A DNA stretch of 64,000 bases from the NCBI GenBank assembly GCA_934635045.1, contig CAKTZA010000009.1:4738-68737 (forward strand). The letters run 5' to 3'. This DNA is from an uncultured Kiritimatiellota bacterium. GTDB lineage: Bacteria; Verrucomicrobiota; Kiritimatiellia; RFP12; UBA1067. Below, piece after piece: positions 16,860-30,626 of the stretch; position 1 is the stretch's first letter; each line of letters starts with the position of its first letter. Below the pieces are notes generated by a model. It was given only the letters and a program-made list of their open reading frames with translations, was not told where the DNA came from and made no database searches. A program made the position numbers and the translations under genes.

Positions 16860-17254
16860 GGCTTGCCGCTCACCTGAAAGCTGACCTTCTCGACCCCCGC
16901 CGCCTTCAGCTCGGACAGCAGCTCGATGCCCGTGCCCAGCGACGACTTGCGGTCGCCTGAGATCAGCACGGGCAGTTTCATGTCCGCCGCATAGAGGTCT
17001 TTCACCTTCGCGAGTGCCGCCGCGCGCGTCGTCGCTTCGCCGTTGAACTGCAATGCGTCGTCCGGCCCGATCGTCAGGACAACCCGCTCGCCCTTCTCAT
17101 CCGCCCCCGCCGCGTTCGGCAGGTCGACCTTGAGGCCCTTGTGCACCGTCATGTCGAAGATGCAGTAGATGAAGAAGACGAGAACGAGGAACATGACATC
17201 CATGAGCGACGTCATCTCCAGCCGCGCGCCGCGTCGCCGCCTACTCTTCGGCAT
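16856..17254 (-). CDS. exbD: Biopolymer transport protein ExbD/TolR
   Basis: 132 aa with the typical N-terminus RRRRGARLEMTSLMDVMFLVLVFFI. Overlaps both exbB and tonB. Confidence 0.75.
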   Translation of the reverse strand: MPKSRRRRGARLEMTSLMDVMFLVLVFFIYCIFDMTVHKGLKVDLPNAAGADEKGERVVLTIGPDDALQFNGEATTRAAALAKVKDLYAADMKLPVLISGDRKSSLGTGIELLSELKAAGVEKVSFQVSGKP

Positions 17255-17606
17255 GGCGCTCCAGGATGTTGTAGGGGAAGAGGAGGACGAGCGAGGCGAT
17301 GAGGCCCGCCGCCGTCGTGATCAGCGCCTCGCCGATGCCCGCCGTCGCCGCCATCGGGTTCGCGACGCCGTCCGCGCCGTTCAGCGCGCCGAACGTCTGC
17401 ATGATGCCCGTCACCGTGCCGAGAATGCCGAGCATCGGCTCGGCCGTGATGATCGTCGAGACGATCGTAAGGCCCTTCCCGTCGCGGCGGCCCGCCCGGA
17501 ACGCGAGCGCCTTCCAGATCAGGATCGCGAGACCAAGAACCGACAGGCCGAGAATCGGCCACATGACCGGCCCGCCCGCCAAGAACGTCTGAATCAGTTT
17601 TTCCAT
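17241..17606 (-). CDS. exbB: MotA/TolQ/ExbB proton-channel family protein (short form)
   Basis: 121 aa, three TM segments, conserved GILGTVTGIMQTF and GEALITTAAGL motifs. Confidence 0.7.
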   Translation of the reverse strand: MEKLIQTFLAGGPVMWPILGLSVLGLAILIWKALAFRAGRRDGKGLTIVSTIITAEPMLGILGTVTGIMQTFGALNGADGVANPMAATAGIGEALITTAAGLIASLVLLFPYNILERHAEE

Positions 17607-17618
17607 TGAGTTTCCATC

Positions 17619-18509
17619 CTAAATTCGTTTAACGCCATCCGCCACAGGTGGGTTCAGCCGGTTGCTGGACGTTGCCCCCGCTCCCCAGACCTGCCGGAGA
17701 AACGCGAGGCCGCGTTTCAGGGCTTCGAGCGTGACGCCCGCATGGGGCTCAAGCACAAGATGCCGAGCGGCCCGCGCGACGGGCTCCAGCGCGGCAAAAT
17801 CAATCTTCCCCTCGCCCGGCGGCAGGTGGTCGTCTCCGCCGCGCGAGTCGTTGAGGTGAAGTCCCACGGGTTGCACAAACCCCGTCGCCTCGGCTGCTGA
17901 CGCCGCCACCCAGCCCTTCGTCTGCCGCACATAGGCATGGCCCGTGTCAAGCCAGGGCCGCACCCAGTCGCCGACCAGATCCCGGATTTCAGCCTCATTG
18001 GGGAAGCCCTCCAGATACGGCAGGTTCTCCAGTCCGAGCGTCACGCGATGCGCCTCCAGCACGGGCGCAAGCGCGTCAAGCTCCCGCCGAAAGACATCCA
18101 CGAGCTTGCGTCCGACACGCAGGCGTTTCTTCGGACGGTTGCGCGCGAAGATTGTCTGGCAGGGAACGCGCCCCGCGTGGAGAACGACGGCCTCGGCACC
18201 CATTTCCGCCGCAAACGCGATGTTCTTCTTCACGTGGACGCGGGCCAGTCCGCGCGCGGCCTCGTCGAAATCGGCGAGGAGGTAAAGTTCGGGATAGCCG
18301 CACGGCGCGGAGAGCGGCACCGGACAAAAGGCGTGAATGGAGCGGACGGGCATCTCGTCCAGCCGCGACTTGAAGCCCGCAACATGTTCCATCGTCGTGT
18401 GGAAGCCCAGTTCCAGCGCCTCGAACCCCAAGGCTTGGGCCTCTTCGACAATCGCTTCGCCGGACGTCAGCCGTCGATTGTTCCAATTGGTCGAAAGCGC
18501 GAACGTCAT
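17619..18509 (-). CDS. Xylose-isomerase-like TIM-barrel (sugar phosphate isomerase/epimerase family) protein
   Basis: Start at MTFALSTNWN (ATG 18509), 2 nt after the DUF58 stop. The track's 86-aa N-terminal extension overlaps the DUF58 gene. Sequence pattern ...GFEALELGF...AVVLHAG...GLENL... Confidence 0.55.
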   Translation of the reverse strand: MTFALSTNWNNRRLTSGEAIVEEAQALGFEALELGFHTTMEHVAGFKSRLDEMPVRSIHAFCPVPLSAPCGYPELYLLADFDEAARGLARVHVKKNIAFAAEMGAEAVVLHAGRVPCQTIFARNRPKKRLRVGRKLVDVFRRELDALAPVLEAHRVTLGLENLPYLEGFPNEAEIRDLVGDWVRPWLDTGHAYVRQTKGWVAASAAEATGFVQPVGLHLNDSRGGDDHLPPGEGKIDFAALEPVARAARHLVLEPHAGVTLEALKRGLAFLRQVWGAGATSSNRLNPPVADGVKRI

Positions 18510-18511
18510 GG

Positions 18512-19510
18512 CTACCGCTTGCGCGCGCGCCGCTTGAAGAGCGCACGCACGGCGTCGATGTACGGACGGTCGGTCGCGATCGGCAGCGTCTCGATGCCCG
18601 TCTTGAGGAAGAACCGCCGCAAGTCCTCGGTCTCGGACGCGGCGCGCGCGGTAAACGCACGGCGCACCTTCGCGCTGGACGTATCCACGAGGACGAGCGC
18701 CCCCGTCTCGGGGTCTTCGAGCTCCACAAGCCCCACGTCGGGCAGCGCGCTTTCCGCCGGATCGCACACGGGCACGCAGATGAGGTCGTGATGCCGCGCC
18801 GCCGCACGCAGGAGCCGCTCGGCAGAAGAACGGGCGTCCGCACTTTCCCCTTCCGCGCCCTTTCCTTCTTCCTTCTTCCCTCTTCCTTCTTCCTTCTTCC
18901 CTCTTCCTTCTCCCTTTTGCCCTCCCTTCTTCCTTTTCCCTTCTGGCATGAGGAAGTCGCTCACGAGAAAGACGACGGCGCGGCGCTTCTGGACGCCGTT
19001 CAGGAACTTGAGCGCGCCCTCGATGTCCGTGCCGCCCTGCGCGTCGTCCTCGGCGGCCAGCACCTCACGCACGAGGCGCATGACCGAGTCGCGGCCCTTG
19101 CGCGGCGGGATGTACTTGACGATCCGGTCGGAGAAGAGGACGAGGCCGATCTTGTCCTGGTTGCGGATCGCCGTCAGCGCGAGTAGCGCCGTCACCTCGG
19201 CGGCGAGCTCCATCTTCGAGCGGCGGACGCTACCGTAGCCCTGCGAGCCGGAGACGTCCACGAGAAAGAGGATCGTCAGCTCGCGCTCCTCGGCGAAGCG
19301 CTTGATGTACGGCACGCCCGTCTTCGCCGTCACGTTCCAGTCGATCGTGCGCACGTCGTCCCCGACCTGGTAGGGGCGCACCTCGTCGAATTCGACGCCC
19401 TGTCCCTTGAAGGTCGAGTGGTAGTCGCCCGCAAGCTGGTCGTCGATCAGCTTGTTGGTGAGGATCCGTATCTTCCCCACCTTCGCCATCAGTTCCTTTA
19501 CGTCAGTCAT
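18512..19510 (-). CDS. DUF58 (VWA-like) protein, usual MoxR partner, with in-frame KKEEG low-complexity insertion
   Basis: YHSTFKGQGVEFDEVRPYQVGDDVRTIDWNVTAKTG...LFLVDVSGS is the DUF58 signature. The insertion PEGKRKKGGQKGEGRGKKEEGRGKKEEGKGAEGE is encoded by the pyrimidine run 18845-18945. Confidence 0.8.
   Translation of the reverse strand: MTDVKELMAKVGKIRILTNKLIDDQLAGDYHSTFKGQGVEFDEVRPYQVGDDVRTIDWNVTAKTGVPYIKRFAEERELTILFLVDVSGSQGYGSVRRSKMELAAEVTALLALTAIRNQDKIGLVLFSDRIVKYIPPRKGRDSVMRLVREVLAAEDDAQGGTDIEGALKFLNGVQKRRAVVFLVSDFLMPEGKRKKGGQKGEGRGKKEEGRGKKEEGKGAEGESADARSSAERLLRAAARHHDLICVPVCDPAESALPDVGLVELEDPETGALVLVDTSSAKVRRAFTARAASETEDLRRFFLKTGIETLPIATDRPYIDAVRALFKRRARKR
18845..18945. repeat. 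Pyrimidine (CTTCCTTCTTCCCT) run in the DUF58 gene
   Basis: Encodes GKKEEGRGKKEEG on the minus strand. Confidence 0.85.
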
Positions 19511-19550
19511 TGGTCATCCACCTCCACAATCACCTCTTATCCAAAAGGCC

Positions 19551-19688
19551 GCAAAGGCTTTGACGCAAAGGCCTCCAAGGCGCTTGCGCTCTTTGCGCTT
19601 CCCTTCGCGTTCTTTGCGGTAAGGCACCAACCGTCTGCTTTCTCATGTGAGTTACGTCTCCTCGTCCGGCACGACCTCGCACGTCTTC
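19551..19688. repeat. Repeat A1: GCAAAG-type element plus a remnant of the 3' end of the small gene 24146..24358
   Basis: Aligns with 24054-24191 (mostly identical by eye), including cgtctcctcgtccggcacgacctcgcacgtcttc, which in A2 is coding sequence. Confidence 0.8.
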
Positions 19689-19753
19689 TTATTTACAATT
19701 ATCATGTCTGCCATCTCACACCACATTCTCTACATCCATCGTGGTTTTTCCCA

Positions 19754-21190
19754 TCAGATTCTCGCCTTCAATCCCGTGATCTCGCCCACATCGAGTTTCG
19801 TAAACGCGAAGCACTTCCTACCGAGGTCTTTCAACGACGCACCGATGAGATAGAGTTCCTTGTCGTCAAGGATGAGAAACCGGTCATGAAACGCCGCGCT
19901 TGTCTTCACGGAAAGGCCGCCATATTGAGCGTTGAACTTCGCGACATCGCTGTCCGCAACTTTGTTGCCGCGCACAGACGTCACAACTTCCACCTCGACC
20001 CCTTTGCGCTTTTTCGCAAGCATGTCAAGCGTTCCCGTTCCAACCCAGCTGTCAATCAACAGAATCGACCTCTTCGCCCGGGCTATCAATCTCTCCATCA
20101 GCGAACAGGCGTCCCACAACTGCCCGTCATAGAACACACCCTGCAAAGGCGGTTCCTTCGTCTGAATGAAGAAATCAACCTTACCCTCAAGCATCGACAA
20201 CCTCTCATCGTGTCCGGCCAACCGACGATCGATCCGATCCTCCAGCAGACACAACCTCTGGTTGACCGCATAGCCTTTCAGCAGATACTCGCGCAAAACA
20301 CCCGTGGCCCATTGCCGGAACTTCGTAGCCCGCAATGAATTGACGCGGTAGCCGACGGCGATGATCATGTCGAGATTGTAGAATGGGACAATTCGTGAAA
20401 TCATCCGCCCACCCTCGTTTTGAACCTGTGCAATTTTTGCACAGGTTGACGCCGCCTCAAGTTCGCCTGTCTTGTAAATGTTGTGTATGTGACGATTGAT
20501 GACCGTTCGATCCACGCCAAACAACTCGCCAAGCCGGGACTGATTGAGCCATACCGTCTCGTTTTCCACGCGAACGTCCAACCGCATTGTCTCGTTCGGC
20601 TGGTAGACAACGATCTGATTTTCCATGTTCTCCCTCATGACATCCATCTGCACAGGGTCGAATGCTGTCACCGTCAGGCCTTTCTCGACATACGATTTAA
20701 GGCTGTCGAAGACAAACGGCATCGAACGTCCGCCCGTCTTCGGATACGGCTTCGCGTAGAAGGCCGCGTCGATCCGAACGACGGGACAGCGCGACGAGCA
20801 GACGTAGACCTCCGCCGCCTTGCGGCCCAGCAGCTTCAGGGGCGTGGTCGCCTCCGCCAATTCGTAAAGCGCATACGTCTCGCCATGGGCCTTCGCCGGT
20901 TCGGCAAGGGAATAGCCCGTCGCCGCCAGTTCCTTGCATCCGACAACCGCCTTGAAGTGTGCCGTGAACGCGAGTGGACGCGCCCCTTCGGCAAAGAGAA
21001 CGATGCCGCCGACACGCTCGTGGAACGCAAGTTTTCCGCACTTCGGCAACGGCAGGTTGTAGAGCCTTTTCGCGGCAATCCACGCCGCGTTCTCCGGCCG
21101 ATACGTCCCGACCAGGACAATGTGCCCAGTGCCCCCTGCCCGCACCGCACGGCGCATCCGCTTGCAATTCTCTCTCCCGCTTTCCTTCAT
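19754..21190 (-). CDS. Fusion protein: about 158-aa unknown N-terminal domain (identical to that of the MTase at 25234..26748), RhuM-family core and PLD-like C-terminal region
   Basis: ETVWLNQSRLGELFGVDRTVINRHIHNIYKTGELEAASTCAKIAQVQNEGGR...FYNLDMIIAVGYRVNSLRATKFRQWAT matches the RhuM family pattern. C-terminal AFHDRFLILDD. Own TTTGGTATAAT box 7 nt upstream of ATG 21190. Confidence 0.7.
   Translation of the reverse strand: MKESGRENCKRMRRAVRAGGTGHIVLVGTYRPENAAWIAAKRLYNLPLPKCGKLAFHERVGGIVLFAEGARPLAFTAHFKAVVGCKELAATGYSLAEPAKAHGETYALYELAEATTPLKLLGRKAAEVYVCSSRCPVVRIDAAFYAKPYPKTGGRSMPFVFDSLKSYVEKGLTVTAFDPVQMDVMRENMENQIVVYQPNETMRLDVRVENETVWLNQSRLGELFGVDRTVINRHIHNIYKTGELEAASTCAKIAQVQNEGGRMISRIVPFYNLDMIIAVGYRVNSLRATKFRQWATGVLREYLLKGYAVNQRLCLLEDRIDRRLAGHDERLSMLEGKVDFFIQTKEPPLQGVFYDGQLWDACSLMERLIARAKRSILLIDSWVGTGTLDMLAKKRKGVEVEVVTSVRGNKVADSDVAKFNAQYGGLSVKTSAAFHDRFLILDDKELYLIGASLKDLGRKCFAFTKLDVGEITGLKARI
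20648..21122. repeat. 475-bp direct repeat N, copy 1 (N-terminal domain of the RhuM fusion)
   Basis: Line-by-line comparison with 26254-26728 showed no mismatch. Confidence 0.9.
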
Positions 21191-21197
21191 GCCGCGT

Positions 21198-21206
21198 ATT
21201 ATACCA
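21198..21206 (-). promoter_or_regulatory. Extended -10 box TGGTATAAT, 7 nt upstream of the RhuM-fusion ATG
   Basis: Minus strand: TTTGGTATAATacgcggcATG. Confidence 0.55.
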
Positions 21207-21262
21207 AAGTGCGCCGCCTCAGCGGCACAATGCCCCAAAAGACACGAACGACTCGCAGGCTT

Positions 21263-22975
21263 TCAGCCTCCGTAGCTCACGAAACCGAAGTTCCCATTCG
21301 CGTGGATGCGGCGGATCGTCTCGGCGGCGAAACACGCCTGGTCGGCCACGTTCAGCCGAATCGGCCGTTCGGTCGGCAGCCCCAAATGCGTCAGCACGAT
21401 CTTCAGGATCGTCGCCGGGTTCTCGAAGCGCGCGGGCGCGGACACGCCGACGGCGATGTAGACGTCCTCCATCGGCGCAATGCCGACGCAGATCGTGATG
21501 CCCTTCTCGCTGCAGCGGCTCAGACTCTTCTCCATAAGGAAAAGCTCCTCGCCCGTCAGGAGGTCGCGGCACTTGAGACCGACGCCTGCCTTCATCGCCA
21601 GAATCTCCAGCCACGTGTAGCGGTAGTTCGCGTAGTACGTCGCCGCGCGCGCGTCAATGTCATCGAATTCCTCCTTCCGCGCCAGCACACGCCGAATCGC
21701 CGGACCGTCGCCCTGGTCATCCATCATTGACGCGAAGTCTCCCACCACGCAGTCGAGCGTCGGGTCGAGGTCGGCCAACGAGTCGCGCTCTTCAAGGAAA
21801 CCGAGCCGAACCGCCGCCTGACGCCGTTCCTCCTGCGTCAGCTCCGTGACGACGTGGGCGCGGACAAAATCCATCGTGACTTGCCGGACATCCTCGTAAA
21901 CCGCGAGCTTGGCGTCACGCCTCGTGGCGTCCTTGACGAATGCGAAATCGATTGGGCCATTGTAGGCGGACAGCGGAATGTCTTCAGGCTGGATGTAGTC
22001 GCCGTCATCCGGCTCGTCTGAATCGGAATCGTCGTCCCAGTCGTCCACGCCCTCGTCGCGGCCCTCGCCGAAGTCGAACACGTCGTGGATGTCCTCGTCT
22101 GCCTGCTCGTCGACGAGCCCAAGGTCGGCAAGCTCGCGCGGCGTCCGGCCGCGCCCTTCCCACGTGCGCGTCGTGTCCAAAAGCGGGCTGAGGGCCTGCG
22201 CGAGACGCTGGACGGCCTCATCGTCGGACGGTTCCCAGTCGCAGTTCTCGCGGATGTACTTGAGCGCCGTGACAACCTTCGCGCCATTGACGCGCGCGTT
22301 GCACTGGACGCCCAGCGTGTCCAGTTCCTGTTCAGCCCTGTCAAGACGATACGCTTTCTTGACGAACCTCTCGAACGCGCGGCTCTCTTTCGTTTCCTCG
22401 GCCGCCATCGGCTCCTCGTAGAGGAGGAAGTCGTCTTCCGGCAGCACGGCGAGGTCGAGCTTGCGGAAACTGGCCATGGTGTCCGCGACCGTGCGCGTGA
22501 TCTCGGCGTTCGCGTCCTTCGACGGAGTCGGCTCCTCGTCCCAATCACTCGACGTCAGGTCGTGGTAGACGATGACGCGCGGCTCGTCCGCCTTCAGCTG
22601 CCAGGTCGAGAACCAGATCTCCGGCGCATCGCACGGCCCGTCCAGCAGATGCTCAAGGTCTTCCGGCTCGGGGCGGTTCGCGAAATAGTCGTGAAGCCGG
22701 TCGACGAGCGCGTCGAGTTCGGCGACCGTCATCGCGTCCGAAATCGGCGCGTCGTGATCTTTCGCGTAGCCGTTGTAAAGCGAGACGAACTCCTCCAGCG
22801 TAAGGACGCCATAGAGGTTCGCCGCCGCGTTGAGGCAGCGCAGCGCGAATTCCTCGCGCGCGTTCAGCTCGGCGGGCTCGTGCGCACCCTCGTCGCGCCC
22901 GCATTCTTCCTCCGCCGCGCTGTCGTCCTTCCAGACGCCATCCGGCCCAATGATCGTGTCAAATGGTCTTTTCAT
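21263..22975 (-). CDS. Hypothetical, strongly acidic 570-aa protein
   Basis: Start at MKRPFDTIIG (ATG 22975), in ATGA overlap with the upstream stop. Asp/Glu tracts (DDWDDDSDSDEPDDGDY). No motif I recognise. Confidence 0.5.
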   Translation of the reverse strand: MKRPFDTIIGPDGVWKDDSAAEEECGRDEGAHEPAELNAREEFALRCLNAAANLYGVLTLEEFVSLYNGYAKDHDAPISDAMTVAELDALVDRLHDYFANRPEPEDLEHLLDGPCDAPEIWFSTWQLKADEPRVIVYHDLTSSDWDEEPTPSKDANAEITRTVADTMASFRKLDLAVLPEDDFLLYEEPMAAEETKESRAFERFVKKAYRLDRAEQELDTLGVQCNARVNGAKVVTALKYIRENCDWEPSDDEAVQRLAQALSPLLDTTRTWEGRGRTPRELADLGLVDEQADEDIHDVFDFGEGRDEGVDDWDDDSDSDEPDDGDYIQPEDIPLSAYNGPIDFAFVKDATRRDAKLAVYEDVRQVTMDFVRAHVVTELTQEERRQAAVRLGFLEERDSLADLDPTLDCVVGDFASMMDDQGDGPAIRRVLARKEEFDDIDARAATYYANYRYTWLEILAMKAGVGLKCRDLLTGEELFLMEKSLSRCSEKGITICVGIAPMEDVYIAVGVSAPARFENPATILKIVLTHLGLPTERPIRLNVADQACFAAETIRRIHANGNFGFVSYGG

Positions 22976-23991
22976 GTTCTGATCGTCCTTTGCCGTAAGT
23001 TTTCCCTCGTACAAGCTCCCTGTTCGTCGATCTCATTCCAATTCCCCAGCACCTGCCAGGTTCCGCCGTTGTCCGCGCCGACCCGCCGCAGACGGCCCTC
23101 CGCCTTGAGCAGACGAAGATTCCTTTCAATCCCCGAACGCGAAAGCCCCGTTTCCCGCACCAGATCCGCCGTCGTCCATTCCGGGCGGCTCGCAAGCGCA
23201 GCCAGGATTTTCTCCTTACTTTTCTCCTTACTCTTGGCGTCGACCTTTTCGCTCGCCAACGCACGCCGCTCCCGATAAAACGTCACCTTCAGGGTCGCCG
23301 ACTCTTCGGAAACGACGGGCACCGGAAGCCCCATCTTGGCACAGGCCTCAAAATAGCGCGACACGCCACCACCCCAGCCCTCGACTTCGCCCATGTATTC
23401 CAGCGCCGCGCCAACGGCATGGTTCCGAAGCTTCGAGAATCCGTTTCGCGCGTCTTCGACCGTCATCTCGCGGACGAGGCCACCGGGCGAGACAACCTCC
23501 AGTCGATCATCATAAACGGCCACGTAAACGCACGACGGCGACAGGTAGTCACGATGGAAGACGGCATTGCAAATGGCCTCGCGAATCGCATCGATCGGCA
23601 ACTCGTAGACGTCCCGCCGCGCCGTGCCGACAAGTTCCGTGCCCACGCGAATGTTCCGCAGCACGAACTGATAGACCTTTTCGCCGCTCTTCACGTCCAC
23701 GGCAATCAGCGACTTGCCTTCGACGACAGCGGGCTTCACATCGATGGAGATGTGCGGCGAGCACATGTTCAAGACCGCATCGACGATGGCGTCCATTTCG
23801 GCGGCGACCTTTTCGCGCGGGATGCCGACAATCCGCCCCGTCTCGTTCTCGACGCCGAACAGCAGCCGTCCGCCGCGCCCGTTGGCGAACGCCACGACGG
23901 TCTTGACGAACTTCAGCGAGTCCTTCGGACGCGCCTCCTTGAACTCAAGCGAGGCATTCTCGCCCTGTGCAATCTGTTCAAGCAACGTCAT
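22972..23991 (-). CDS. AlbA_2/Schlafen-like divergent-AAA domain protein with HATPase_c_4-like and C-terminal wHTH regions (COG2865 type)
   Basis: GENASLEFKEARPKDSLKFVKTVVAFANGRGGRLLFGVENETGRIVGI (AlbA_2 pattern). IREAICNAVFHRDYLSPSCVYVAVYDDRLEVVSPGGL. Start at MTLLEQ (ATG 23991). Confidence 0.65.
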   Translation of the reverse strand: MTLLEQIAQGENASLEFKEARPKDSLKFVKTVVAFANGRGGRLLFGVENETGRIVGIPREKVAAEMDAIVDAVLNMCSPHISIDVKPAVVEGKSLIAVDVKSGEKVYQFVLRNIRVGTELVGTARRDVYELPIDAIREAICNAVFHRDYLSPSCVYVAVYDDRLEVVSPGGLVREMTVEDARNGFSKLRNHAVGAALEYMGEVEGWGGGVSRYFEACAKMGLPVPVVSEESATLKVTFYRERRALASEKVDAKSKEKSKEKILAALASRPEWTTADLVRETGLSRSGIERNLRLLKAEGRLRRVGADNGGTWQVLGNWNEIDEQGACTRENLRQRTIRT

Positions 23992-24053
23992 GCCGCCACG
24001 CCTCTTGTCTGAAGAAACCGCAAACAAACCATCTCGTCCTCGGCATTTTCAAC

Positions 24054-24191
24054 GCAAAGGCTTTGACGCAAAGGACGCAAAGGCGCTTGCGCTCTTTGCG
24101 GTTCCCTTCGCGTTCTTTGCGTTAAGGCACAAACCGACTGCTTTCTCATGTGGCTTCCATCTCCTCGTCCGGCACGACCTCGCACGTCTTC
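24054..24191. repeat. Repeat A2 (covers the last ~15 codons of the small gene plus the downstream spacer)
   Basis: See A1. Confidence 0.8.
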
Positions 24192-24358
24192 GAATAGTCC
24201 GTGTGTGGCCCGCAGGCCAACGACAACTTCACAATGTCAATCATGCCACCACCGACAAGGCCGTCGGCCACCCACTCGGCATCGTCAGGCGATTCCGCCA
24301 TCACCTCGATGCGGGCGGTGTAGGTTTCGGTGACATCAACAAGATAGCGACGCTTCAT
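24146..24358 (-). CDS. Small hypothetical protein (70 aa) downstream of the restriction gene
   Basis: ATG 24358 preceded by a strong SD (GAAGGAGAAGCC). Its last ~15 codons lie inside repeat A2. No recognisable domain. Confidence 0.4.
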   Translation of the reverse strand: MKRRYLVDVTETYTARIEVMAESPDDAEWVADGLVGGGMIDIVKLSLACGPHTDYSKTCEVVPDEEMEAT

Positions 24359-24368
24359 GGCTTCTCCT

Positions 24369-25244
24369 TCAACAGGCAAGATCCAGCGGCAAGTCGGAAA
24401 TATCCTTAAGGCGCTTACCGTCAATCATGTTGTTTAGCAAGACCATCGCCTCGTCACGGCTCTTCGACGAACATTTCTTCACCGCCGACAAAAGCTCATA
24501 CAACGCGAAATGATAAACACAGTCAATGTCGCCCGTGCCAAGGGCCAGCGAGGCGATACGCGAGGGCGAAGGTTCTGCCGTAACGACCATGATATGCGGC
24601 ACACGCCCCTTGCGGTCGCGCATCAGGTTCAAGGCTTCCGTCCGACTGTTCTGCGCACGGTCGCTCCGCATTGTCCACTTCGCCGAAATCGACGCATGGA
24701 GGATTGGCTTGCCTCCGTTCTTCTTGCGCAAGTCGGCTTTCAGGCAGATCGAATCATCGACAAAATCAGCAAGTCGATTGATTTCATCGTCCTCACACAA
24801 AGCACGGGCCACAACCACATCCGGCGACACGAGATAGTCGTTGCCCAACGCCGCCTGGAGTTTCGGATTCTCGCGAACAGCCTCCGCCAAGGCGAAGAGA
24901 TGTTCGTACTGGGCGAAATCCGCCGTCTTGACACGGCTCTTGTTTCCCAACCTCGCCACACTCCAAGTACCGGGGCGCAGATTCTGCAATTTCGGAAACG
25001 TCGACTCCACGAATTTTGCAACGGCATCCTCAAAACTGGCTCCGGCTGTCTGCCCTTTCTCCTTGGCACACGCATATCCCGCGCCAAGGAATCTCGCAAT
25101 CCCGTCGGCTATCGCACACGAAAACGCATTCTTTCGGTCGGCATTGGACGCCACCCCCTCCTTGTCAAAGCAGAGAATGCCGCCCTGGACAAGCCGATCA
25201 TGGAAAGCCTTTCTGGCTTCGGCAAACACAACCTCACGCCTCAT
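24369..25244 (-). CDS. Type II restriction endonuclease, NgoMIV/Cfr10I/Bse634I family (CCGG-core recognition likely)
   Basis: SPD...(47 aa)...SAK-WTM-RSDR-AQNSRT-E. The D-to-K spacing of 47, K-to-E spacing of 14 and RSDR four residues after K reproduce, as I recall them, NgoMIV D140/K187/R191-S-D-R194/E201. Start at MRREV (ATG 25244). Confidence 0.7.
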   Translation of the reverse strand: MRREVVFAEARKAFHDRLVQGGILCFDKEGVASNADRKNAFSCAIADGIARFLGAGYACAKEKGQTAGASFEDAVAKFVESTFPKLQNLRPGTWSVARLGNKSRVKTADFAQYEHLFALAEAVRENPKLQAALGNDYLVSPDVVVARALCEDDEINRLADFVDDSICLKADLRKKNGGKPILHASISAKWTMRSDRAQNSRTEALNLMRDRKGRVPHIMVVTAEPSPSRIASLALGTGDIDCVYHFALYELLSAVKKCSSKSRDEAMVLLNNMIDGKRLKDISDLPLDLAC

Positions 25245-26748
25245 GGTTGAGACACCTCCTAATCTGTATGCCCACAGCCTGTGCAACAGGCGGCGGAAAC
25301 GCATTCCCAATCATCCGGCAAGCCGCTGTCTTGCGCGCCCCGAAGTCCCAAGCTTCCGGGAAACCCTGAATGCGCGCAATCATCTCCTTCGTCAGTCGCG
25401 GCGAGCCGGTGAAATCACGTGACGGCGGCTCATTGGCTATGCCAAGCCCATCCACATCCAACTCTGCCCAAGCTCGTCGCGCACGCGTCGGGCCGAGATC
25501 CGGGCCACCATGTTTCTTGCTTCCCCCAACAATCGTCGGAGCGATGCGGTTCGCGTGTTCCACCCACATATCCAACCCGCGCCAGCCATTCGCCCCCATC
25601 AGTTCGCGCAGGGCTTCGCCCACGGTCGGCGCAGCCCTGCGGCTCGGTTCGGGATAGGCGAAGTCGAGCGGCTGGTCATTGCGGATGCCGACAATGATGA
25701 CGCGCGGACGAATCTGCGGAACGCCATAATCGTTCGCCTGCAGAAGCTTGATCTGCGTACGATAGCCAAGTCGGGAAATCGAGTCAAGGATGCGCGCGCG
25801 ATAGGCAGCAAACTTCGGATCCAGAAATCCCCGCACGTTTTCCAACATCACGGCGCGCGGACGGATTTCCGAAATCAGGCGGATGGCCTGCGGGAAGAGA
25901 TCTCGTTCGTCGTCTTCGCCCAACTGGCGCGAAGCAACGGAAAACGGCGGACACGGGACGCCGCCGGCAAGGAGATCGACGCCTTGATACGGCGTGCCGT
26001 CAAATTGATGCACGTCCCCGCAGATGACATTCCACTCCGGCTTGTTGCGCCGCAGAACGGCACAGTAGTCTTTCTCGTATTCGACAAGCGCAACATGCCG
26101 GAAGCCGGCGCGGTCAAGTCCGATGGCCTGTCCCCCGGCCCCCGCACAGATTTCGACACACGTCAGTTCGCCCGCCGCACGCGCCGCCGCCAGAAGGCCG
26201 TCGGCGACTTTCTGCCCGTAGTCGAAACCGAAACTGTCCTGGAAGAAGTCGTCCTGCACAGGGTCGAATGCTGTCACCGTCAGGCCTTTCTCGACATACG
26301 ATTTAAGGCTGTCGAAGACAAACGGCATCGAACGTCCGCCCGTCTTCGGATACGGCTTCGCGTAGAAGGCCGCGTCGATCCGAACGACGGGACAGCGCGA
26401 CGAGCAGACGTAGACCTCCGCCGCCTTGCGGCCCAGCAGCTTCAGGGGCGTGGTCGCCTCCGCCAATTCGTAAAGCGCATACGTCTCGCCATGGGCCTTC
26501 GCCGGTTCGGCAAGGGAATAGCCCGTCGCCGCCAGTTCCTTGCATCCGACAACCGCCTTGAAGTGTGCCGTGAACGCGAGTGGACGCGCCCCTTCGGCAA
26601 AGAGAACGATGCCGCCGACACGCTCGTGGAACGCAAGTTTTCCGCACTTCGGCAACGGCAGGTTGTAGAGCCTTTTCGCGGCAATCCACGCCGCGTTCTC
26701 CGGCCGATACGTCCCGACCAGGACAATGCTCGAATCCCGCCGCTTCAC
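25234..26748 (-). CDS. C5 cytosine DNA methyltransferase with the same ~158-aa unknown N-terminal domain as the RhuM fusion
   Basis: Motif I CVEICAGAGGQAIG, motif IV GGVPCPPFS, motif VI AVMLENVRGF. GTG start 26748 overlaps the moxR stop (GTGA). Confidence 0.85.
   Translation of the reverse strand: MKRRDSSIVLVGTYRPENAAWIAAKRLYNLPLPKCGKLAFHERVGGIVLFAEGARPLAFTAHFKAVVGCKELAATGYSLAEPAKAHGETYALYELAEATTPLKLLGRKAAEVYVCSSRCPVVRIDAAFYAKPYPKTGGRSMPFVFDSLKSYVEKGLTVTAFDPVQDDFFQDSFGFDYGQKVADGLLAAARAAGELTCVEICAGAGGQAIGLDRAGFRHVALVEYEKDYCAVLRRNKPEWNVICGDVHQFDGTPYQGVDLLAGGVPCPPFSVASRQLGEDDERDLFPQAIRLISEIRPRAVMLENVRGFLDPKFAAYRARILDSISRLGYRTQIKLLQANDYGVPQIRPRVIIVGIRNDQPLDFAYPEPSRRAAPTVGEALRELMGANGWRGLDMWVEHANRIAPTIVGGSKKHGGPDLGPTRARRAWAELDVDGLGIANEPPSRDFTGSPRLTKEMIARIQGFPEAWDFGARKTAACRMIGNAFPPPVAQAVGIQIRRCLNHEA
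26254..26728. repeat. 475-bp direct repeat N, copy 2 (N-terminal domain of the MTase)
   Basis: See copy 1; offset 5606 bp. Confidence 0.9.
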
Positions 26749-27707
26749 GGCACGGGGACTTCGGAGAGGATCTTGTCGATGACCTTGTCGGACGTCACGC
26801 CCTCGGCCTCCGCCTCGTAGGTGAGGATGATGCGGTGGCGGAGGACGTCATGCACGACCTCCTTCACGTCCTGCGGCGTCGCGTAGGCGCGGCCGTGCAG
26901 GAGCGCGTTGCCGCGCGCGGCGAGGTTCAGCGCGAGCGTCGCGCGCGGCGAGGCCCCGTTCTGGACCATCTCGCTCGCCTCGCGCGTCTTGAAGACGATG
27001 TCGAGGATGTAGTCGCCGACCTTCTCGTCGCAGTAGACCTCCTTCAGCGTCGCGCGCAGGGCCGCGACGTCGTCCGGCGTGCACACCGTCTTCGCTTCCG
27101 GTGCCTGCGCATTCTCGGCGAAGCGCTGCATGATGCGCCGCTCGTCCGCCTTCGACGGCGTCTCGACGAGGCACTTGAACATGAAGCGGTCGACCTGCGC
27201 CTCCGGGAGCGGATACGTGCCCTCCTGCTCGATCGGGTTCTGCGTCGCGAGGACGAGGAACGGCTGCGGCAGCTTGTACGTCTCCTCGCCGATCGTGACC
27301 TGCTTCTCCTGCATCGACTCCAACAGGGCGGACTGCACCTTCGCCGGCGCGCGGTTGATCTCGTCCGCCAGGAGCAGGTTCGTGAAGACGGGACCCTTCT
27401 TCGGCGTGAACTCGCCCGTCTTCGGAGAATAGACGAGCGTGCCGACGACATCGGCCGGCAGCAGGTCCGGCGTGAACGAGATGCGCTTGAATTCGAGGCC
27501 GAGCGCCTTGGCGAGCGTGTTGACGGACAGCGTCTTCGCAAGGCCGGGGACGCCCTCCAGCAAGATGTGCCCGCCGGTCGTCAGCGCGAGAATGAGCCGG
27601 TCGACGAGCTTCTCCTGCCCGACGATCACCTTCGCGACTTCTTCGCGGATCTTCGTGACGAGTTCGCCCTGCGCGGCGATGCGGTTTGTGGCTTCCTTGA
27701 GGTCCAT
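26745..27707 (-). CDS. moxR: MoxR-family AAA+ ATPase
   Basis: GHILLEGVPGLAKT (Walker A), LLADEINRAPAKVQSALLE (Walker B region), VLATQNP. Start at MDLKEA (ATG 27707) behind SD GAAGGAA; the track start overlaps the -10 box. Confidence 0.85.
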   Translation of the reverse strand: MDLKEATNRIAAQGELVTKIREEVAKVIVGQEKLVDRLILALTTGGHILLEGVPGLAKTLSVNTLAKALGLEFKRISFTPDLLPADVVGTLVYSPKTGEFTPKKGPVFTNLLLADEINRAPAKVQSALLESMQEKQVTIGEETYKLPQPFLVLATQNPIEQEGTYPLPEAQVDRFMFKCLVETPSKADERRIMQRFAENAQAPEAKTVCTPDDVAALRATLKEVYCDEKVGDYILDIVFKTREASEMVQNGASPRATLALNLAARGNALLHGRAYATPQDVKEVVHDVLRHRIILTYEAEAEGVTSDKVIDKILSEVPVP

Positions 27708-27777
27708 ATCTGTTCCTTCGTGCTGATTTCGGATGTTTGTACTGTTTTGGCTGTTGGTTCGTTTGAAATCAGGTGGC

Positions 27778-27786
27778 ATTATACCA
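27778..27786 (-). promoter_or_regulatory. Extended -10 box TGGTATAAT upstream of moxR (leader ~65 nt)
   Basis: Minus strand: TATGGTATAATgccacc...GAAGGAACAGATATG. Confidence 0.5.
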
Positions 27787-27851
27787 TAAATGCCGCACGG
27801 CGCGGCACGTCATTCGGGGCGGAAACGCCAAGTGCGGCATGGGCGTCAGGG

Positions 27852-28484
27852 TCAGGCCGTGAGCACGCCCCGGAACTTCAGGCCGCCGAAGATGCGGTCG
27901 CAGACGAACGCAACGAACTCATGCCGCCATTCGTCCTCGGTCGCGCCCGGCGGACGGTGACGCGCCCGCCAGATGGGATGGTAGAGCGCGTAGGCGCCGA
28001 GCTGAACCCAGATCGACGCCGACCACAGGTACGCCTCGTGGTCGTTGTCTGTCGCCATGCGCATGAGGCGGAAGAGCCGATTGCGCGCAGGGCTTGCGAA
28101 ATGCTCCTCCAAGTAGTCCTTCACCTTCGACGGATGCATGGTCTCCTGACGGAAGATGCCCGCCGCATAGGCGCCGACGCCGACTTTCGCGTGAAAGGCC
28201 TCCACGAACGTCTCGACCCAGATGTGGACGGCCGCCTTCCACGTGCGCGCATCACGGACGCCCGCCACGACGGCGGCCATCTCCGAACCGTGTGTCGCCT
28301 CGTAGACGCGCTCGACACATTCGCGGTAAAGGCCCTCCTTGCTGTGGAAATGGTAGTTCACGAGCGCACCGTTGACCTTGGCCGCGCGGCAGATCTCCCG
28401 CACGGTCACGCCCTCCAGGCCCTTCTCGGCAAAGAGCCGCGTCGCGGCCTCCATGATCTTCTCCTTGGTCTTGTTCTTCTCCAC
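27852..28484 (-). CDS. TetR/AcrR-family transcriptional regulator
   Basis: N-terminal HTH: IMEAATRLFAEKGLEGVTVREICRAAKVNGALVNYHFHSKEGLY. Confidence 0.8.
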   Translation of the reverse strand: MEKNKTKEKIMEAATRLFAEKGLEGVTVREICRAAKVNGALVNYHFHSKEGLYRECVERVYEATHGSEMAAVVAGVRDARTWKAAVHIWVETFVEAFHAKVGVGAYAAGIFRQETMHPSKVKDYLEEHFASPARNRLFRLMRMATDNDHEAYLWSASIWVQLGAYALYHPIWRARHRPPGATEDEWRHEFVAFVCDRIFGGLKFRGVLTA

Positions 28485-28509
28485 GTGTCTCTGTCTGAAC
28501 CTTTTGTTT

Positions 28510-28523
28510 TAAACGTGCGTTTA
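28510..28523. promoter_or_regulatory. Inverted repeat TAAACG-NN-CGTTTA, candidate TetR operator
   Basis: taaacgtgcgttta begins at the last base of the putative -10 and lies 26 nt upstream of the TetR start. Confidence 0.4.
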
Positions 28524-28552
28524 GAATATCATTTTTGAAACGAACCTGTCAA
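28523..28552 (-). promoter_or_regulatory. Sigma-70-type promoter TTGACA-N18-(TGA)TATTCT for the TetR gene
   Basis: Minus strand: TTGACAGGTTCGTTTCAAAAATGATATTCT. Confidence 0.45.
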
Positions 28553-28568
28553 CGGGATGAGAAGCCCT

Positions 28569-29159
28569 TCAGCGGGACGTCCCACAGAAGAAGATGAGTG
28601 CGGCCAGTTGGAGGGCGAGCAGCCCGTAGACGAGCCACGCGACCTTCCGGCCGTTTGTCGGATCGACCGCCTCGCGCTCGGAGTACTTCGTTACGCCCGC
28701 GATGTAGGCGAGCCAGACCGCCGCCGCGATCCAGACGGGACCGCCCACGGAACCGCCCAGCAGCACATTGCACCCACGCGCCGCGCCCATGAGCAACGGA
28801 TTCTTCGTGCGGTTGTAGAGCTGGATCGCGACCGTCAGCGCGACAAGTACAAGAAACGGGCCGTGACCGAGATAAAGCGCCAGCACGGCAAGGCACAGGC
28901 AGGCCGTGCGCGCCGTCCGCGCCGCGCGCAGGGAGATCTCGCCCGCCGCGAGCGGGCGCGTCTTCGGGTCGGTCGCCGCGCCGACGAGGTCGTTGTCGAC
29001 GAGCCCGTACAGGTACATGCAGACCGAGGCGAGGCAGACGAGGGCGATGTCACCCACGCGCGCGGCGACCAGTCCGCCGCACGCCGCCGCGCCGACCAGC
29101 ACGTCCCCCGGCACGGTGACGAGGTTCTGGACGCGAAAGAGCCGAAGCCACGCGCTCAT
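28569..29159 (-). CDS. Short UbiA-prenyltransferase-like membrane protein (196 aa)
   Basis: FRVQNLVTVPGDVL..., Asp-rich first motif region VDNDLVGAATDPKTRPLAAGEIS, several TM helices. Shorter than typical UbiA members. ATGA overlap with dapB. Confidence 0.5.
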   Translation of the reverse strand: MSAWLRLFRVQNLVTVPGDVLVGAAACGGLVAARVGDIALVCLASVCMYLYGLVDNDLVGAATDPKTRPLAAGEISLRAARTARTACLCLAVLALYLGHGPFLVLVALTVAIQLYNRTKNPLLMGAARGCNVLLGGSVGGPVWIAAAVWLAYIAGVTKYSEREAVDPTNGRKVAWLVYGLLALQLAALIFFCGTSR

Positions 29160-29899: not shown

Positions 29900-29931
29900 G
29901 TGTCTTCTCCCATCTCCGCTGTTGAGGCCGT

Positions 29932-30624: not shown

Positions 30625-30626
30625 GT

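Follow-up and report, generated by a model that had tools for sequence, protein, structure and literature searches.

A framed defence island with exchangeable cargo between moxR and its DUF58 partner gene in a gut Kiritimatiellae genome

Gene content of the island

We found that positions 19511-26744 (~7.2 kb) of a contig from a gut Kiritimatiellae genome are a genuine accessory defence island that splits the moxR-DUF58 gene pair, and that the island is one case of a Kiritimatiellae-specific family of framed islands, not a one-off graft. Recurring frame segments bracket exchangeable cargo, and exchange of this cargo via homologous recombination in the frame segments is the best and, in our judgement, a likely explanation of the locus. 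All positions refer to the window, the whole 64-kb stretch of DNA that was analysed. The island separates the moxR stop at 26745 from the DUF58 start at 19510, and Pfam-type profile matches place both partners at these ends, in agreement with the initial annotation. That annotation counted seven unrelated genes between them; we find six, as does a separate gene call on an identical contig, and two of the six are fusions that have a 475-bp repeat in common (100% identical). The moxR start, earlier placed at 27779, moves to the conserved start at ATG 27707 (MDLKEA), and a 320-aa moxR is called on the identical contig as well.

26745..27707, minus strand: moxR (AAA_3 + AAA_lid_2), 320 aa; AAA_3 1.5e-64; conserved start MDLKEA
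25234..26748, minus strand: slot 1 gene 1, 158-aa N-domain (Adom) fused to a C5 cytosine methyltransferase (Dcm)
24369..25244, minus strand: NgoMIV-type type II restriction endonuclease, 291 aa, low-GC cargo
24146..24358, minus strand: 70-aa acidic ORF ending the RM cassette; PF14207 E 0.016
22972..23991, minus strand: AlbA_2 (Schlafen-like) + HATPase_c_4 + winged-helix protein, 339 aa
21263..22975, minus strand: acidic protein, 570 aa, pI 4.35, anchor of the island family
19754..21190, minus strand: slot 2 gene, 478 aa, leader + second Adom copy + PDC-S05
18512..19510, minus strand: DUF58/VWA, the MoxR partner, 7.2 kb away from moxR; 1.3e-72

The window has two cargo slots, each beginning with an identical 475-bp N-domain copy. 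Slot 1 holds the NgoMIV-type RM pair, the small ORF and AlbA2. In its first gene, the 158-aa N-domain, possibly PUA-like, precedes a methyltransferase domain that matches PF00145 (9.7e-67 over aa 196-496) and the MTase_II/DruM HMMs (~1e-137). The endonuclease matches PF09015 (1e-116 over 1-274/275) and PADLOC REase_II (1.2e-102). The 70-aa ORF bears a weak likeness to DpnD/PcfM (PF14207 E 0.016) and matches phrog_10718 (E 1.9e-4); its homologues come after RM pairs in L001, L002 and L087 (88-90% identical; L numbers denote the loci compared) and after a NOV_C gene in L084 (70% identical). The TGA of the AlbA_2 gene overlaps the acidic-gene ATG (ATGA), and the C-terminal two thirds of the AlbA_2 protein (aa 116-327) are 84% identical in L001 and L085, with a 95% identical fragment in L095. 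In slot 2, the fusion joint is in frame, with ...FDPVQ followed directly by MD... and the full PDC-S05 gene (PADLOC PDLC04879 1.7e-105 over 3-275/285 at aa 205-484; RhuM 8.9e-23). We infer that PDC-S05 consists of a RhuM N-terminal region and a C-terminal region that looks PLD-like on sequence inspection. In L095 and L096 this S05 gene follows moxR as a gene on its own, with a start that corresponds exactly to window position 20647.

The NgoMIV-type RM pair and the full-length PDC-S05 bear out the accessory, defence-type nature proposed earlier; judged by family, the island would restrict unmethylated DNA and supply further anti-phage effectors. The insert is also free of an integrase, transposase or tRNA target, as had been noted: none of the six insert proteins matched an integrase or transposase family in profile searches, and there is no tRNA gene in the 64-kb window. 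The reported GC dips are genuine in a GC profile, with two cargo stretches at 53-56% compared to ~65% in the flanks (PDC-S05 0.529, REase 0.557 and S05-DUF58 spacer 0.514; moxR 0.664, DUF58 0.655 and whole window 0.641), and they fall on cargo, not on the frame.

Predicted transcription

27778..27786, minus strand: TGGTATAAT extended -10 promoter motif upstream of moxR, from motif counting
21198..21206, minus strand: internal TGGTATAAT promoter motif in the conserved slot 2 leader
21210..21229, minus strand: terminator-like GC hairpin directly past the acidic gene, from hairpin analysis

The promoter suggested at 27778-27786 coincides with TGGTATAAT, a motif that the window contains 8 times, always on the coding strand, against an expectation of 0.03. 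The described GTGA coupling is there too: the GTG start of the first island gene, the MTase fusion, overlaps the moxR TGA, and this gene has no leader or promoter of its own. Unlike slot 1, slot 2 has its own TGGTATAAT promoter. The sequence around the 21210-21229 hairpin is kept in L001 and L002, with differences in the hairpin 5' arm in L002. From this layout, the moxR promoter would drive moxR and then the GTGA-coupled MTase, the REase and the small ORF; past the small ORF and the hairpin of palindrome B (see below), AlbA2 and the ATGA-coupled acidic gene would also be transcribed from the moxR promoter. After the acidic-gene hairpin, the internal promoter would serve N-domain::PDC-S05, DUF58 and downstream genes. 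With this internal hairpin and TGGTATAAT promoter lying ahead of both the last island gene and DUF58, transcription of DUF58 would not have to depend on read-through from the moxR promoter.

Internal repeats

Two internal direct repeats, D1 and D2, were absent from the initial annotation and are the key to island variation.

26254..26728: direct repeat D1 copy 1, 475 bp, encodes Adom; 100% identical to copy 2
20648..21122: direct repeat D1 copy 2, 475 bp; also covered end to end in L129, another strain
24051..24195: direct repeat D2 copy 1 (B), small-ORF tail + ~85-nt CGCAAAG-rich palindrome, cassette 3' end
19548..19692: direct repeat D2 copy 2 (B'), small-ORF tail remnant + palindrome, directly upstream of DUF58

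The D1 copies are spaced 5,606 bp apart. N-domain copies are 100% identical to each other in the window and 96.4% in L085, and at most 93% identical to orthologues; because the copies are closer to each other than to orthologues, intragenomic homogenisation is indicated. The D2 copies are ~140 bp long and 92% identical to each other, and copy 1 includes the last ~10 codons of the 70-aa ORF. Every cassette is closed by B, whose core is near-invariant across 8 copies from 6 sequences and whose conservation exceeds that of neighbouring coding DNA; as RNA, B is predicted to form a hairpin (-43.9 kcal/mol, z -4.15). B-like copies are also found elsewhere, some inside coding sequence.

As in integron arrays and CALINs, the cassettes are co-oriented (several of them without a promoter) and each is closed by an imperfect palindrome of ~85 nt at its 3' end that is conserved within the array, and by eye B opens with (G/C)CTTAAC (cf. 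R'' RYYYAAC) and closes with GTTGAAA (cf. R' GTTRRRY). The B-like copies outside the island, including those in coding sequence, would likewise suit a cassette array in which B is an attC-type site and an IntI-type integrase is encoded elsewhere. We nevertheless find this reading quite improbable. The attC core motifs are only approximated, with imperfect R'/R'' matches and R''/R' complementarity of 4/7 beyond AAC/GTT; 7.2 kb contain two sites only, and one "cassette" would have to span 4.5 kb and five elements; the insert has no integrase and no evident attI; and the left cassette boundary is not an attC but a coding junction between protein domains, directly after PVQ. B gave no match in Rfam, and in-frame B-like insertions in the N-domain resemble a MITE/REP-type dispersed repeat more.

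The moxR-DUF58 site in relatives

The expectation that moxR and DUF58 are normally adjacent proved correct: in 17 of the 24 close loci holding both genes the gap is at most 100 nt (<=30 nt in 13, 31-100 nt in 4), and at empty sites stop and start commonly overlap as TAATG, GTGA or ATGA; most relatives have the two genes translationally coupled. The island is not conserved core synteny, since its gene order and content differ in every related genome carrying these genes. In L001, moxR is followed by the acidic gene, leader+Adom-MTase, REase, small ORF, AlbA2 and DUF58; in L002 and L087, it is followed by leader+Adom-MTase, REase, small ORF, B, acidic gene and DUF58. There are two slots at the site in L085, as in the window. 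In L096, S05, B and the N-terminal half of the acidic gene lie between moxR and DUF58, and in L095 the island at this site is decayed. A locus of the same species, L131, is 99.8% identical up to ~22124, where it departs inside the acidic gene into other sequence and an SMC-like ATPase. Nucleotide identity of the island to at least 6 related genomes or contigs is 80-96%, which resembles the identities of flanking genes. The graft proposed earlier holds as an accessory insert but not as a recent, one-off event; by these comparisons the island is an old, evolving hotspot.

All comparison genomes are metagenome assemblies, some of them binned under obviously wrong names, and strain-level statements therefore hinge on contig integrity. 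The tandem arrangement could be false if assembly had gone wrong at the exact 475-bp repeat; the true state would then be moxR, N-domain, S05, B' and DUF58, with N-domain, MTase, REase, small ORF, B, AlbA2, acidic gene and leader lying on their own 5,606-bp circle or in another strain. The 5,606-bp repeat spacing does define a self-closable unit, of which the L001 module order looks like a circular permutation, and the short-read contigs L128 (141 nt) and L130 (77 nt) end exactly one k-mer into the repeat. However, the full path is present on L127, a 103-kb contig with the same arrangement and 100% identity across the compared 19.5 kb, and, by tool listing alone, 5 further contigs of 50-200 kb have mostly the same neighbouring genes. 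The path from the acidic gene through leader, second N-domain copy, S05 and B' to DUF58 is spanned at 99.77% identity in L129, a different strain (23 mismatches in 10 kb). Two slots and two N-domain copies occur independently in L085, where the copies cannot collapse in assembly because they are 3.6% different, and the window's junction of moxR with the N-domain is a derived form of the L085 junction. An artefact is thus very improbable. The exact DUF58 protein is present on 10 public contigs.

Frame, cargo and other insertion sites

The frame consists of the N-domain as the 5' end of the MTase gene, the small-ORF tail, the ~85-nt palindrome B, the 570-aa acidic protein and a leader with the TGGTATAAT promoter. 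Its pieces bracket one or two slots of exchangeable cargo, comprising at least 5 REase types (NgoMIV, NgoFVII, HNH and two more PADLOC types), PDC-S05, AlbA2, NOV_C and an SMC-like ATPase. Past the invariant ...F(D/N)PVQ junction come several different MTases, NOV_C or PDC-S05. We found the same frame between nrdD and nrdG in L089, L090, L143, L144 and L150, a pair whose gap is <=~140 nt in ~47 of the 53 loci holding both genes, and between gltX and a metallophosphoesterase gene in related bacteria, where stop and start of the empty alleles (L112, L115, L118) are 3 nt apart. Empty alleles exist at each of the three sites.

It is hardly credible that the insert belongs functionally with its neighbours, as part of a MoxR-VWA conflict system. 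The bpMoxR profile, which describes MoxR-vWA ternary conflict systems (PMC7159879), does hit MoxR at 8e-14, and translation of the first island gene is coupled to that of moxR; however, AAA_3 is a far better match for MoxR (1.5e-64), moxR-DUF58 stands alone in most relatives, the same frame is found inside nrdDG and beside gltX, and island content varies within the species.

No other component is as constant as the acidic protein, which has 197 homologues reaching down to 42% full-length identity. It is built of helical domains and an acidic linker and has a C-terminal OB-like barrel (Foldseek probability 0.9-0.97) and an invariant TRTW..RG motif, which matches the H-NS C-terminal profile (E 0.003); distant relatives bear Rho_N and SEC-C. 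It is probably a nucleic-acid binder, and its conservation, well past the needs of a passive homology arm, suggests that it may play an active part. Its gene is usually the rightmost of the island and touches or overlaps the start of the next host gene: it shares GTGA with nrdG, and it ends 1-20 nt short of DUF58 in L087 and L002 and ~45 nt short of the phosphoesterase gene. In L095, L096 and L099 it has decayed, as accessory genes do.

The constancy, edge position and decay of the acidic gene, the nucleic-acid-binding hints in its protein and the presence of one unit at three unrelated stop/start junctions with empty alleles at each would fit a mobile element that is autonomous yet lacks an integrase. 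In it, the acidic protein, possibly aided by the N-domain and small ORF, would direct insertion into junctions of tightly coupled, co-directional genes, with defence genes as cargo. We regard such an element as unlikely. The acidic protein has no nuclease or recombinase fold or motif, with no Foldseek match to PDB or BFVD at E<0.001 and none in Pfam, PADLOC, NCBIfam or PHROGs; the outer borders of the islands have no terminal repeats or target-site duplications; and no frame copies were found on plasmids, phages or viral contigs. Frame identity between sites is only ~51%, and relocations must therefore have been ancient and rare. Presence and absence at a site can also be obtained by allelic replacement via flanking homology.

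In the framed island with cargo exchanged by homologous recombination, which we favour, frame segments would act as portable homology arms through which cargo is swapped, duplicated, shifted between slots or deleted, both between strains and within one genome. The two identical 475-bp N-domain copies would then be the trace of cargo exchange, or of gene conversion. Cells that lost the 5.6-kb unit through recombination between both repeats would be punished by RM addiction. Homologous recombination cannot account for how the frame first came to three unrelated sites. We could not trace one unique series of recombination events that leads from any of the relatives observed to the window; such a series would have to pass through a hypothetical intermediate in which S05 occupies slot 1 and B-AlbA2 lies upstream of the acidic gene, a state that L095 backs in part only.

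Comparison with known systems

In Pseudomonas aeruginosa, core defence hotspots (cDHS) lie between conserved core genes without mobile-element hallmarks (PMC10250203). The island resembles them in its fixed chromosomal site, variable defence-rich content, lack of an integrase and variation that is best explained by recombination through conserved flanks. In contrast to a cDHS, which occupies an intergenic gap between operons, the site here is inside a translationally coupled gene pair, and the island has its own internal frame (N-domain, B, acidic protein) that recurs at three sites; its homology arms are thus part of what travels, not host core genes. Mobile RM units without mobility genes and allelic RM substitution have also been described (Furuta, Abe & Kobayashi 2010; PMC2853133). 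Here too, RM genes are inserted or substituted without a transposase or integrase, direct repeats accompany the RM unit and RM addiction is a plausible stabiliser; unlike those units, the insert has no long flanking target duplication, its repeats are internal and coding, and a large conserved non-RM protein co-travels.

The model of DpnI/DpnII cassettes reportedly originates with Lacks et al. 1986. In Streptococcus pneumoniae, these alternative restriction cassettes occupy one locus (PMC3573125). The likeness lies in non-homologous RM cassettes that share a position between common sequences and are exchanged by homologous recombination, and in a small DpnD-like ORF alongside the cassette, for which the match here is weak (E 0.016). 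In contrast, the left arm of our island encodes an N-terminal domain and remains fused to whatever comes next, two slots can be filled simultaneously and cargo extends beyond RM systems. A further difference is that we know of no natural transformation in these uncultured bacteria.

Polymorphic toxins (Rhs, CdiA-CT) with their C-terminal displacement arrays offer a mechanistic analogy only. There is no secretion context here, and what is swapped is an MTase domain or an entire unrelated gene, in place of a toxin tip and its immunity gene. What the systems would share is a constant 5' coding segment that recombines with downstream copies and gains a new 3' part, and orphan copies of the constant segment are located downstream.

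A defence-gene insert separates moxR from its DUF58 partner

In the window, moxR and the DUF58 gene are 7,234 bp apart, and the initial annotation was right to place an island between them. It had counted seven genes there; we found six, and separate gene prediction on a public contig of identical sequence agrees.

Genes of the moxR-DUF58 locus
26745-27707, minus strand: moxR; AAA_3 (PF07726, 1.5e-64) and AAA_lid_2 (PF17863, 3.2e-21)
25234-26748, minus strand: methyltransferase (MTase) fusion, 504 aa; the C5 MTase part spans aa 196-496 (PF00145, 9.7e-67, over 2-322/324)
24369-25244, minus strand: NgoMIV-type restriction endonuclease (REase; PF09015, 1e-116, over 1-274/275)
24146-24358, minus strand: small ORF, 70 aa, without significant family
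22972-23991, minus strand: AlbA_2/HATPase_c_4/wHTH protein (Pfam domains)
21263-22975, minus strand: acidic protein, 570 aa, pI 4.35, without family
19754-21190, minus strand: RhuM fusion, 478 aa (RhuM, 8.9e-23)
18512-19510, minus strand: DUF58/VWA gene (PF01882, 1.3e-72)

The GTG of the first island gene, the MTase fusion, does overlap the TGA of moxR (GTGA). The MTase and REase genes are co-oriented and overlap by 11 nt, and the catalytic domain of the MTase is complete. In the RhuM fusion, aa 205-484 match the profile of the candidate defence protein PDC-S05 (hereafter S05) over its full length (PADLOC PDLC04879, 1.7e-105, 3-275/285). Both in the window and in contig L129, S05 follows a duplicated N-domain as an in-frame fusion; it stands alone in L095 and L096. 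The small ORF weakly matches DpnD/PcfM (E 0.016) and also a PHROG of unknown function. The reported GC dips are present (S05, 0.529; REase, 0.557; spacer between S05 and DUF58, 0.514; frame and flanks, 0.61-0.66). Low GC tracks the cargo (S05 and REase, 0.53-0.56), and the frame that brackets this cargo, made up of the 5' end of the N-domain MTase, the small ORF, a palindrome (B), the acidic gene and a leader, is near the host (0.61-0.64 and 0.64-0.66, respectively).

As the initial annotation had it, none of the six insert proteins matched an integrase or transposase family, and the whole 64 kb holds no tRNA. Relaxases were likewise unmatched among these six proteins, and the two flanking genes matched none of the three families. 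At the outer borders of the island we found no terminal repeats or target duplication; the repeats D1 and D2, described below, are internal. By these features of the insert and its flanking genes, the locus does not qualify as an integrase-borne island. In kind it is a defence hotspot, and the defence-island interpretation is supported.

moxR and DUF58 are adjacent in most close relatives

Scanning one genome per species gave 80 moxR loci. The best matches of the window were human and ruminant gut MAGs, and the window belongs to gut Kiritimatiellae. Among the 24 loci with a MoxR identity of at least 80% that hold both genes, the gap between moxR and DUF58 is at most 30 nt in 13, 31-100 nt in 4, 101-1000 nt in 4 and more than 1 kb in 3; the adjacency that had been assumed is therefore found, at 100 nt or less, in 17 of 24 close relatives. 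In the short gaps the stop and start codons overlap or abut (TAATG, GTGA, ATGA), so that moxR and DUF58 are normally translationally coupled. By this comparison, adjacency is the ancestral state, and the GTGA of the window is the ancestral coupling signal, taken over by the first island gene. Apart from moxR and DUF58, tblastn and blastn found no genes common to the window flanks and the closest moxR loci, and the downstream AP_endonuc_2/ExbBD/TonB genes are common only to L095 and same-species contigs; wider synteny was therefore unusable.

Other DNA also lies at this site. In one relative (L004:4609-4887), a 273-nt spacer between moxR and DUF58 holds a small ORF that resembles the GxxExxY family and is bordered by CACGGAGG / CTCTGTG repeats, and thus is a different small element at the same site. 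In another (L027:11500-12393), a lone 297-aa HNH_2 endonuclease without the frame lies between the two genes and is further unrelated nuclease cargo at this hotspot.

The inserts share a frame with two cargo slots

Inserts between moxR and DUF58 are also present in the closest species representatives, L001 (MoxR 95%) and L002 (MoxR 94%), in metagenome contigs L081, L085 and L087/L088, and in L095 and L096, which are closest to the window by their flanks. Their content is rich in defence genes and differs among the window, L001, L002, L027, L085, L087, L095, L096 and L131.

Gene orders at the moxR-DUF58 site. M, moxR; D, DUF58; A and A', copies of the N-domain; ldr, leader; sm, small ORF; B and B', palindrome; Alb, AlbA2; ac, acidic gene.
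Window: M / A-MTase, REase, sm, B, Alb / ac / ldr-A', S05, B' / D
L001: M / ac / ldr-A-MTase, REase, sm, Alb / D
L002, L087: M / ldr-A-MTase, REase (NgoMIV or NgoFVII), sm, B / ac / D
L085: M / A-MTase', HNH, sm, S05 remnant, B / ac / ldr-A-MTase'', REase'', sm, B, Alb / D
L096: M / S05, B / ac (N-terminal half) / D
L095: M / S05 (5' 249 nt), B, Alb (3' fragment)-ac (N-terminal half) / D, then the AP_endonuc_2 gene of the window

A model with one cargo slot on each side of the acidic gene (slot 1 upstream, slot 2 downstream) accommodates every tabulated arrangement. Circular permutation of a 5.6-kb element had been considered for all orders and was replaced by this model, which is anchored on the acidic gene and fits the window, L001, L002, L085, L087 and L089 without permutation. 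In L095 and L096 the S05 cassette starts at the equivalent of window position 20647, exactly the end of D1. The short N-terminus VKRRDSS found in the window is homologous to MKRAGNQ of L085 slot 1, which there lies 44 nt from moxR. Nucleotide identities of the islands (80-96%) are within the range of the flanking genes; therefore, the insert is older than these species.

Internal repeats, a promoter motif and a dispersed palindrome

The insert genes had been called unrelated, and the two internal repeats had been missed. Both fusions have the same N-terminal 158 aa, the N-domain, because of D1, a 475-bp direct repeat that is 100% identical at 20648-21122 and 26254-26728 (spacing 5,606 bp). The second repeat, D2 (about 140 bp, 92% identical, 19548-19692 and 24051-24195), holds the final codons of the small ORF and the CGCAAAG-rich palindrome B.

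The motif TGGTATAAT occurs 8 times in the window (0.03 expected), on the coding strand every time, and is probably this organism's standard extended -10 promoter.

Copies of TGGTATAAT in the window
11712-11720, minus strand
13837-13845, minus strand
21198-21206, minus strand (leader)
27778-27786, minus strand (proposed moxR promoter)
34238-34246, minus strand
44167-44175, minus strand
50903-50911, minus strand
52563-52571, minus strand

The moxR promoter placed at 27778-27786 by the initial annotation carries the motif. The conserved start of moxR is the ATG at 27707, not 27779. In the leader before A', a terminator-like hairpin (21229-21210) is followed by TGGTATAAT at 21206-21198. This leader is kept in L001 and L002, and in L002 the hairpin has a divergent 5' arm.

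B forms the 3' end of every cassette. Its core of about 85 nt is nearly invariant (8 copies, 6 sequences) and more conserved than the adjacent coding DNA, and it folds as a hairpin of -43.9 kcal/mol (z -4.15) without a U-tract; an Rfam search of 17000-29000 at E up to 0.1 found no structured RNA.

B-like palindromes in the window
24051-24130
19548-19630

B-like copies also occur in frame within the N-domain of other lineages (L102, L106, L109 and L110; insert 'SRKERKGRKDGRA'), in the moxR-DUF58 spacers of L016 (10950-11020) and L039, and at other places in the loci compared (L021:2916-2932 and L178:4380-4396). B is therefore a member of a dispersed palindromic repeat family, which resembles MITE/REP-type elements and might act as a hotspot of recombination. 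We also considered an attC-like role for B, with a distant integrase acting on it, which we regard as very improbable: B starts with (G/C)CTTAAC, ends with GTTGAAA and folds as a hairpin, but its match to the core R''(RYYYAAC)...R'(GTTRRRY) is imperfect, and no intI or attI of an integron or CALIN is adjacent, the neighbours being TetR and moxR upstream and DUF58 downstream.

Cargo varies within conserved arms

The frame reads to an invariant junction, ...F(D/N)PVQ, and then runs into variable cargo, which may be the NgoMIV-associated MTase, a different MTase, of which there are at least three types (MDFF..., MEFM...), NOV_C behind a short stub, or S05. Five REase families are represented (NgoMIV, NgoFVII, HNH, PDLC03404 and PDLC03563), and one variant from the same species has an SMC/LmuB-like ATPase in place of an REase. 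In L131 (1-3882), a contig of the same species, the N-terminal half of the acidic gene is 99.8% identical to the window, and everything beyond about window 22124 is replaced by a different C-terminal half and a 780-aa AAA_23/SMC-like ATPase with LmuB/AriA-like N-terminal similarity. All three breakpoints in the acidic gene (about 22124 in L131 and 22109 in L095 and L096; L099 begins at about 22004) lie in or beside an acidic low-complexity linker. These breakpoints and the internal repeats speak for ongoing recombination.

Between its two N-domain copies the window shows 100% identity and L085 96.4%, whereas identity to any orthologue is at most 93%; being closer to each other than to orthologues, the copies bear the signature of recent exchange or of conversion within the genome. 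B matches B' at only 92%, and S05-B' and sm-B thus have separate histories. A unique recombination path from any observed relative to the window was not derivable.

Many metagenomic N-domain proteins are in-frame deletions that join MTase motif I to the C-terminus of the REase, and such alleles are natural, inactivated remnants of decayed restriction-modification (RM) systems. In P0006, P0013 and P0036, the N-domain or MTase motif I is joined to the last ~30-60 residues of an NgoMIV-type REase, and one of these junctions is at a shared 'ALYEL' microhomology.

The tandem arrangement is probably not an assembly artefact. Ten public contigs encode the window DUF58 protein. L127 (103 kb) does not differ from the window over the 19.5 kb compared, and five further contigs have mostly the same neighbouring genes, as judged from the neighbour listing. 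L129, from a different strain (23 mismatches in 10 kb), spans ac-leader-A'-S05-B'-DUF58, and L128 and L130 end one k-mer into the repeat, as a true repeat would give. L085 has the same two-copy architecture as the window, with diverged copies.

The same frame splits two other gene pairs

L089 and L090 carry the frame unit in the gap from nrdD to nrdG: its MTase starts, with GTG, 12 nt past the nrdD stop, and the TGA of the acidic gene overlaps the GTG of nrdG. Both nrdD and nrdG are present at 53 of the nrdG loci, and the gap between them is about 140 nt or less in approximately 47 of these. At the other six, 1.2-2.4 kb is inserted, and remnants of the frame or of an MTase are present in five (L143, L144, L150, L171 and L177). 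In another lineage, the frame unit is flanked by gltX and the gene for a membrane metallophosphoesterase (L097, L102, L106-L110, L114 and L116), and in the empty alleles L112, L115 and L118 these two genes are parted by 'TGA CGT ATG'. Thus, the acidic gene belongs to the insert. That it is a core gene was ruled out by its absence from the empty gltX-phosphoesterase and nrdD-nrdG alleles, and is also countered by its truncation, to the N-terminal half in L095 and L096 and to the C-terminal half in L099.

At the gltX site, islands L109 (2320-2390), L110, L114 and L116 have three tandem CGTGTAGA(A/T) 9-mers just 5' of the N-domain MTase start, which could be operator sites for autoregulation.

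The acidic protein has 197 homologues, with full-length identity from 86% down to 42%, and an exhaustive search gave 633 clusters at 50% identity. In every context inspected, the homologues adjoin N-domain MTase/REase/small-ORF sets, their remnants or other accessory genes. We found no significant match in Pfam, PADLOC, NCBIfam, PHROGs or a PDB sequence profile, and nothing significant by tblastn against plasmids and phages or in an IMG/VR scan; a PF25948 tag precomputed for some homologues was not reproduced with local Pfam. The AF2 model is confident (pLDDT 81.5), and Foldseek against PDB and BFVD gave nothing at E<0.001. The C-terminal barrel alone resembles OB/cold-shock/LEF-3 folds (probability 0.9-0.97), and the invariant TRTW..RG..T..E motif weakly matches the H-NS C-terminal profile (E 0.003). 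Among ten distant relatives tested, seven have a SEC-C motif and three have Rho_N. We infer that the acidic protein binds nucleic acid. The N-domain is also modelled confidently (pLDDT 87, pTM 0.84); its best Foldseek matches, YTH, ASCH and EVE/THYN1, are sub-threshold (E 0.1-1.5, probability up to 0.54, TM up to 0.36), and a role as a PUA-like modified-base reader is a lead only.

A model for cargo turnover and operon rewiring

In the model that we propose, homologous recombination would act in A, B and the acidic gene and so turn the cargo over. The moxR promoter would drive slot 1, and the internal promoter would drive slot 2, DUF58 and the downstream genes. The island would restrict unmethylated DNA and supply further anti-phage activities, and RM addiction would counter loss of the 5.6-kb unit through A x A' recombination.

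This recombination model leaves the first entry of the frame at three unrelated stop/start junctions unaccounted for, which gives scope for a role of the acidic protein in mobility or targeting, and also for the attC-like reading of B. The frame might then be a previously undescribed integrase-less mobile element of coupled stop/start junctions (moxR-DUF58, nrdD-nrdG and gltX-phosphoesterase), with the acidic protein as its targeting or recombination factor; such an element would borrow upstream transcription, restore downstream expression and carry exchangeable defence cargo. We consider this unlikely. If the acidic protein does mediate insertion, this would be a new mobility mechanism; if it does not, the locus is still useful for strain typing and for mining new Kiritimatiellae defence genes.

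The island is of the same kind as cDHS-type hotspots (PMC10250203). Its cassette logic has parallels in the Dpn locus of pneumococcus (PMC3573125) and in the RM units without integrase described by Furuta et al. (PMC2853133). In contrast to all of these, it sits within translationally coupled pairs, it has its own portable frame with a coding N-domain as the left arm, and a large conserved protein of novel fold co-travels with it. Defence hotspots are usually described as gaps between core genes. Here the hotspot lies within gene pairs that normally have overlapping stop and start codons, and three unrelated pairs have been split by this framed island. The locus offers a concrete case for studying the tolerance and rewiring of operons by selfish or defence DNA, with GTGA/ATGA coupling on entry and an internal promoter on exit, and for portable homology arms, including a coding N-terminal domain, that swap unrelated defence genes in an uncultured gut phylum. 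It likewise lends itself to the study of what the widespread, structurally novel 570-aa protein does.

Restriction-site content and other features of the window

In the window, GCCGGC, the site that an NgoMIV-type system would be expected to recognise, is only mildly depleted (59 observed, 81.9 expected), which is uninformative on NgoMIV specificity. There is no GCCGGC over 9.2 kb (16771-25963, DUF58 and most of the island; window average about 0.9/kb), and the only island sites, 25963 and 26104, are within the MTase gene. CCGCGG (SacII-type) is under-represented about 9-fold (6 observed, 55.9 expected under a 4th-order Markov model), which may reflect long exposure to a restriction system specific for CCGCGG.

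A second low-GC patch (29750-31000, 0.48-0.53) covers a 226-aa ORF (29995-30675) and the 3' end of the gene for a 1191-aa thrombospondin-type-3-repeat protein, and may be another foreign insertion. Among the contigs compared, clear Kiritimatiellae contigs (L008, L010, L011, L030, L099 and others) are binned as Barnesiella, Muribaculaceae, Gemmiger, Azospirillum and other names, and point to contaminated MAG bins in the public collection.
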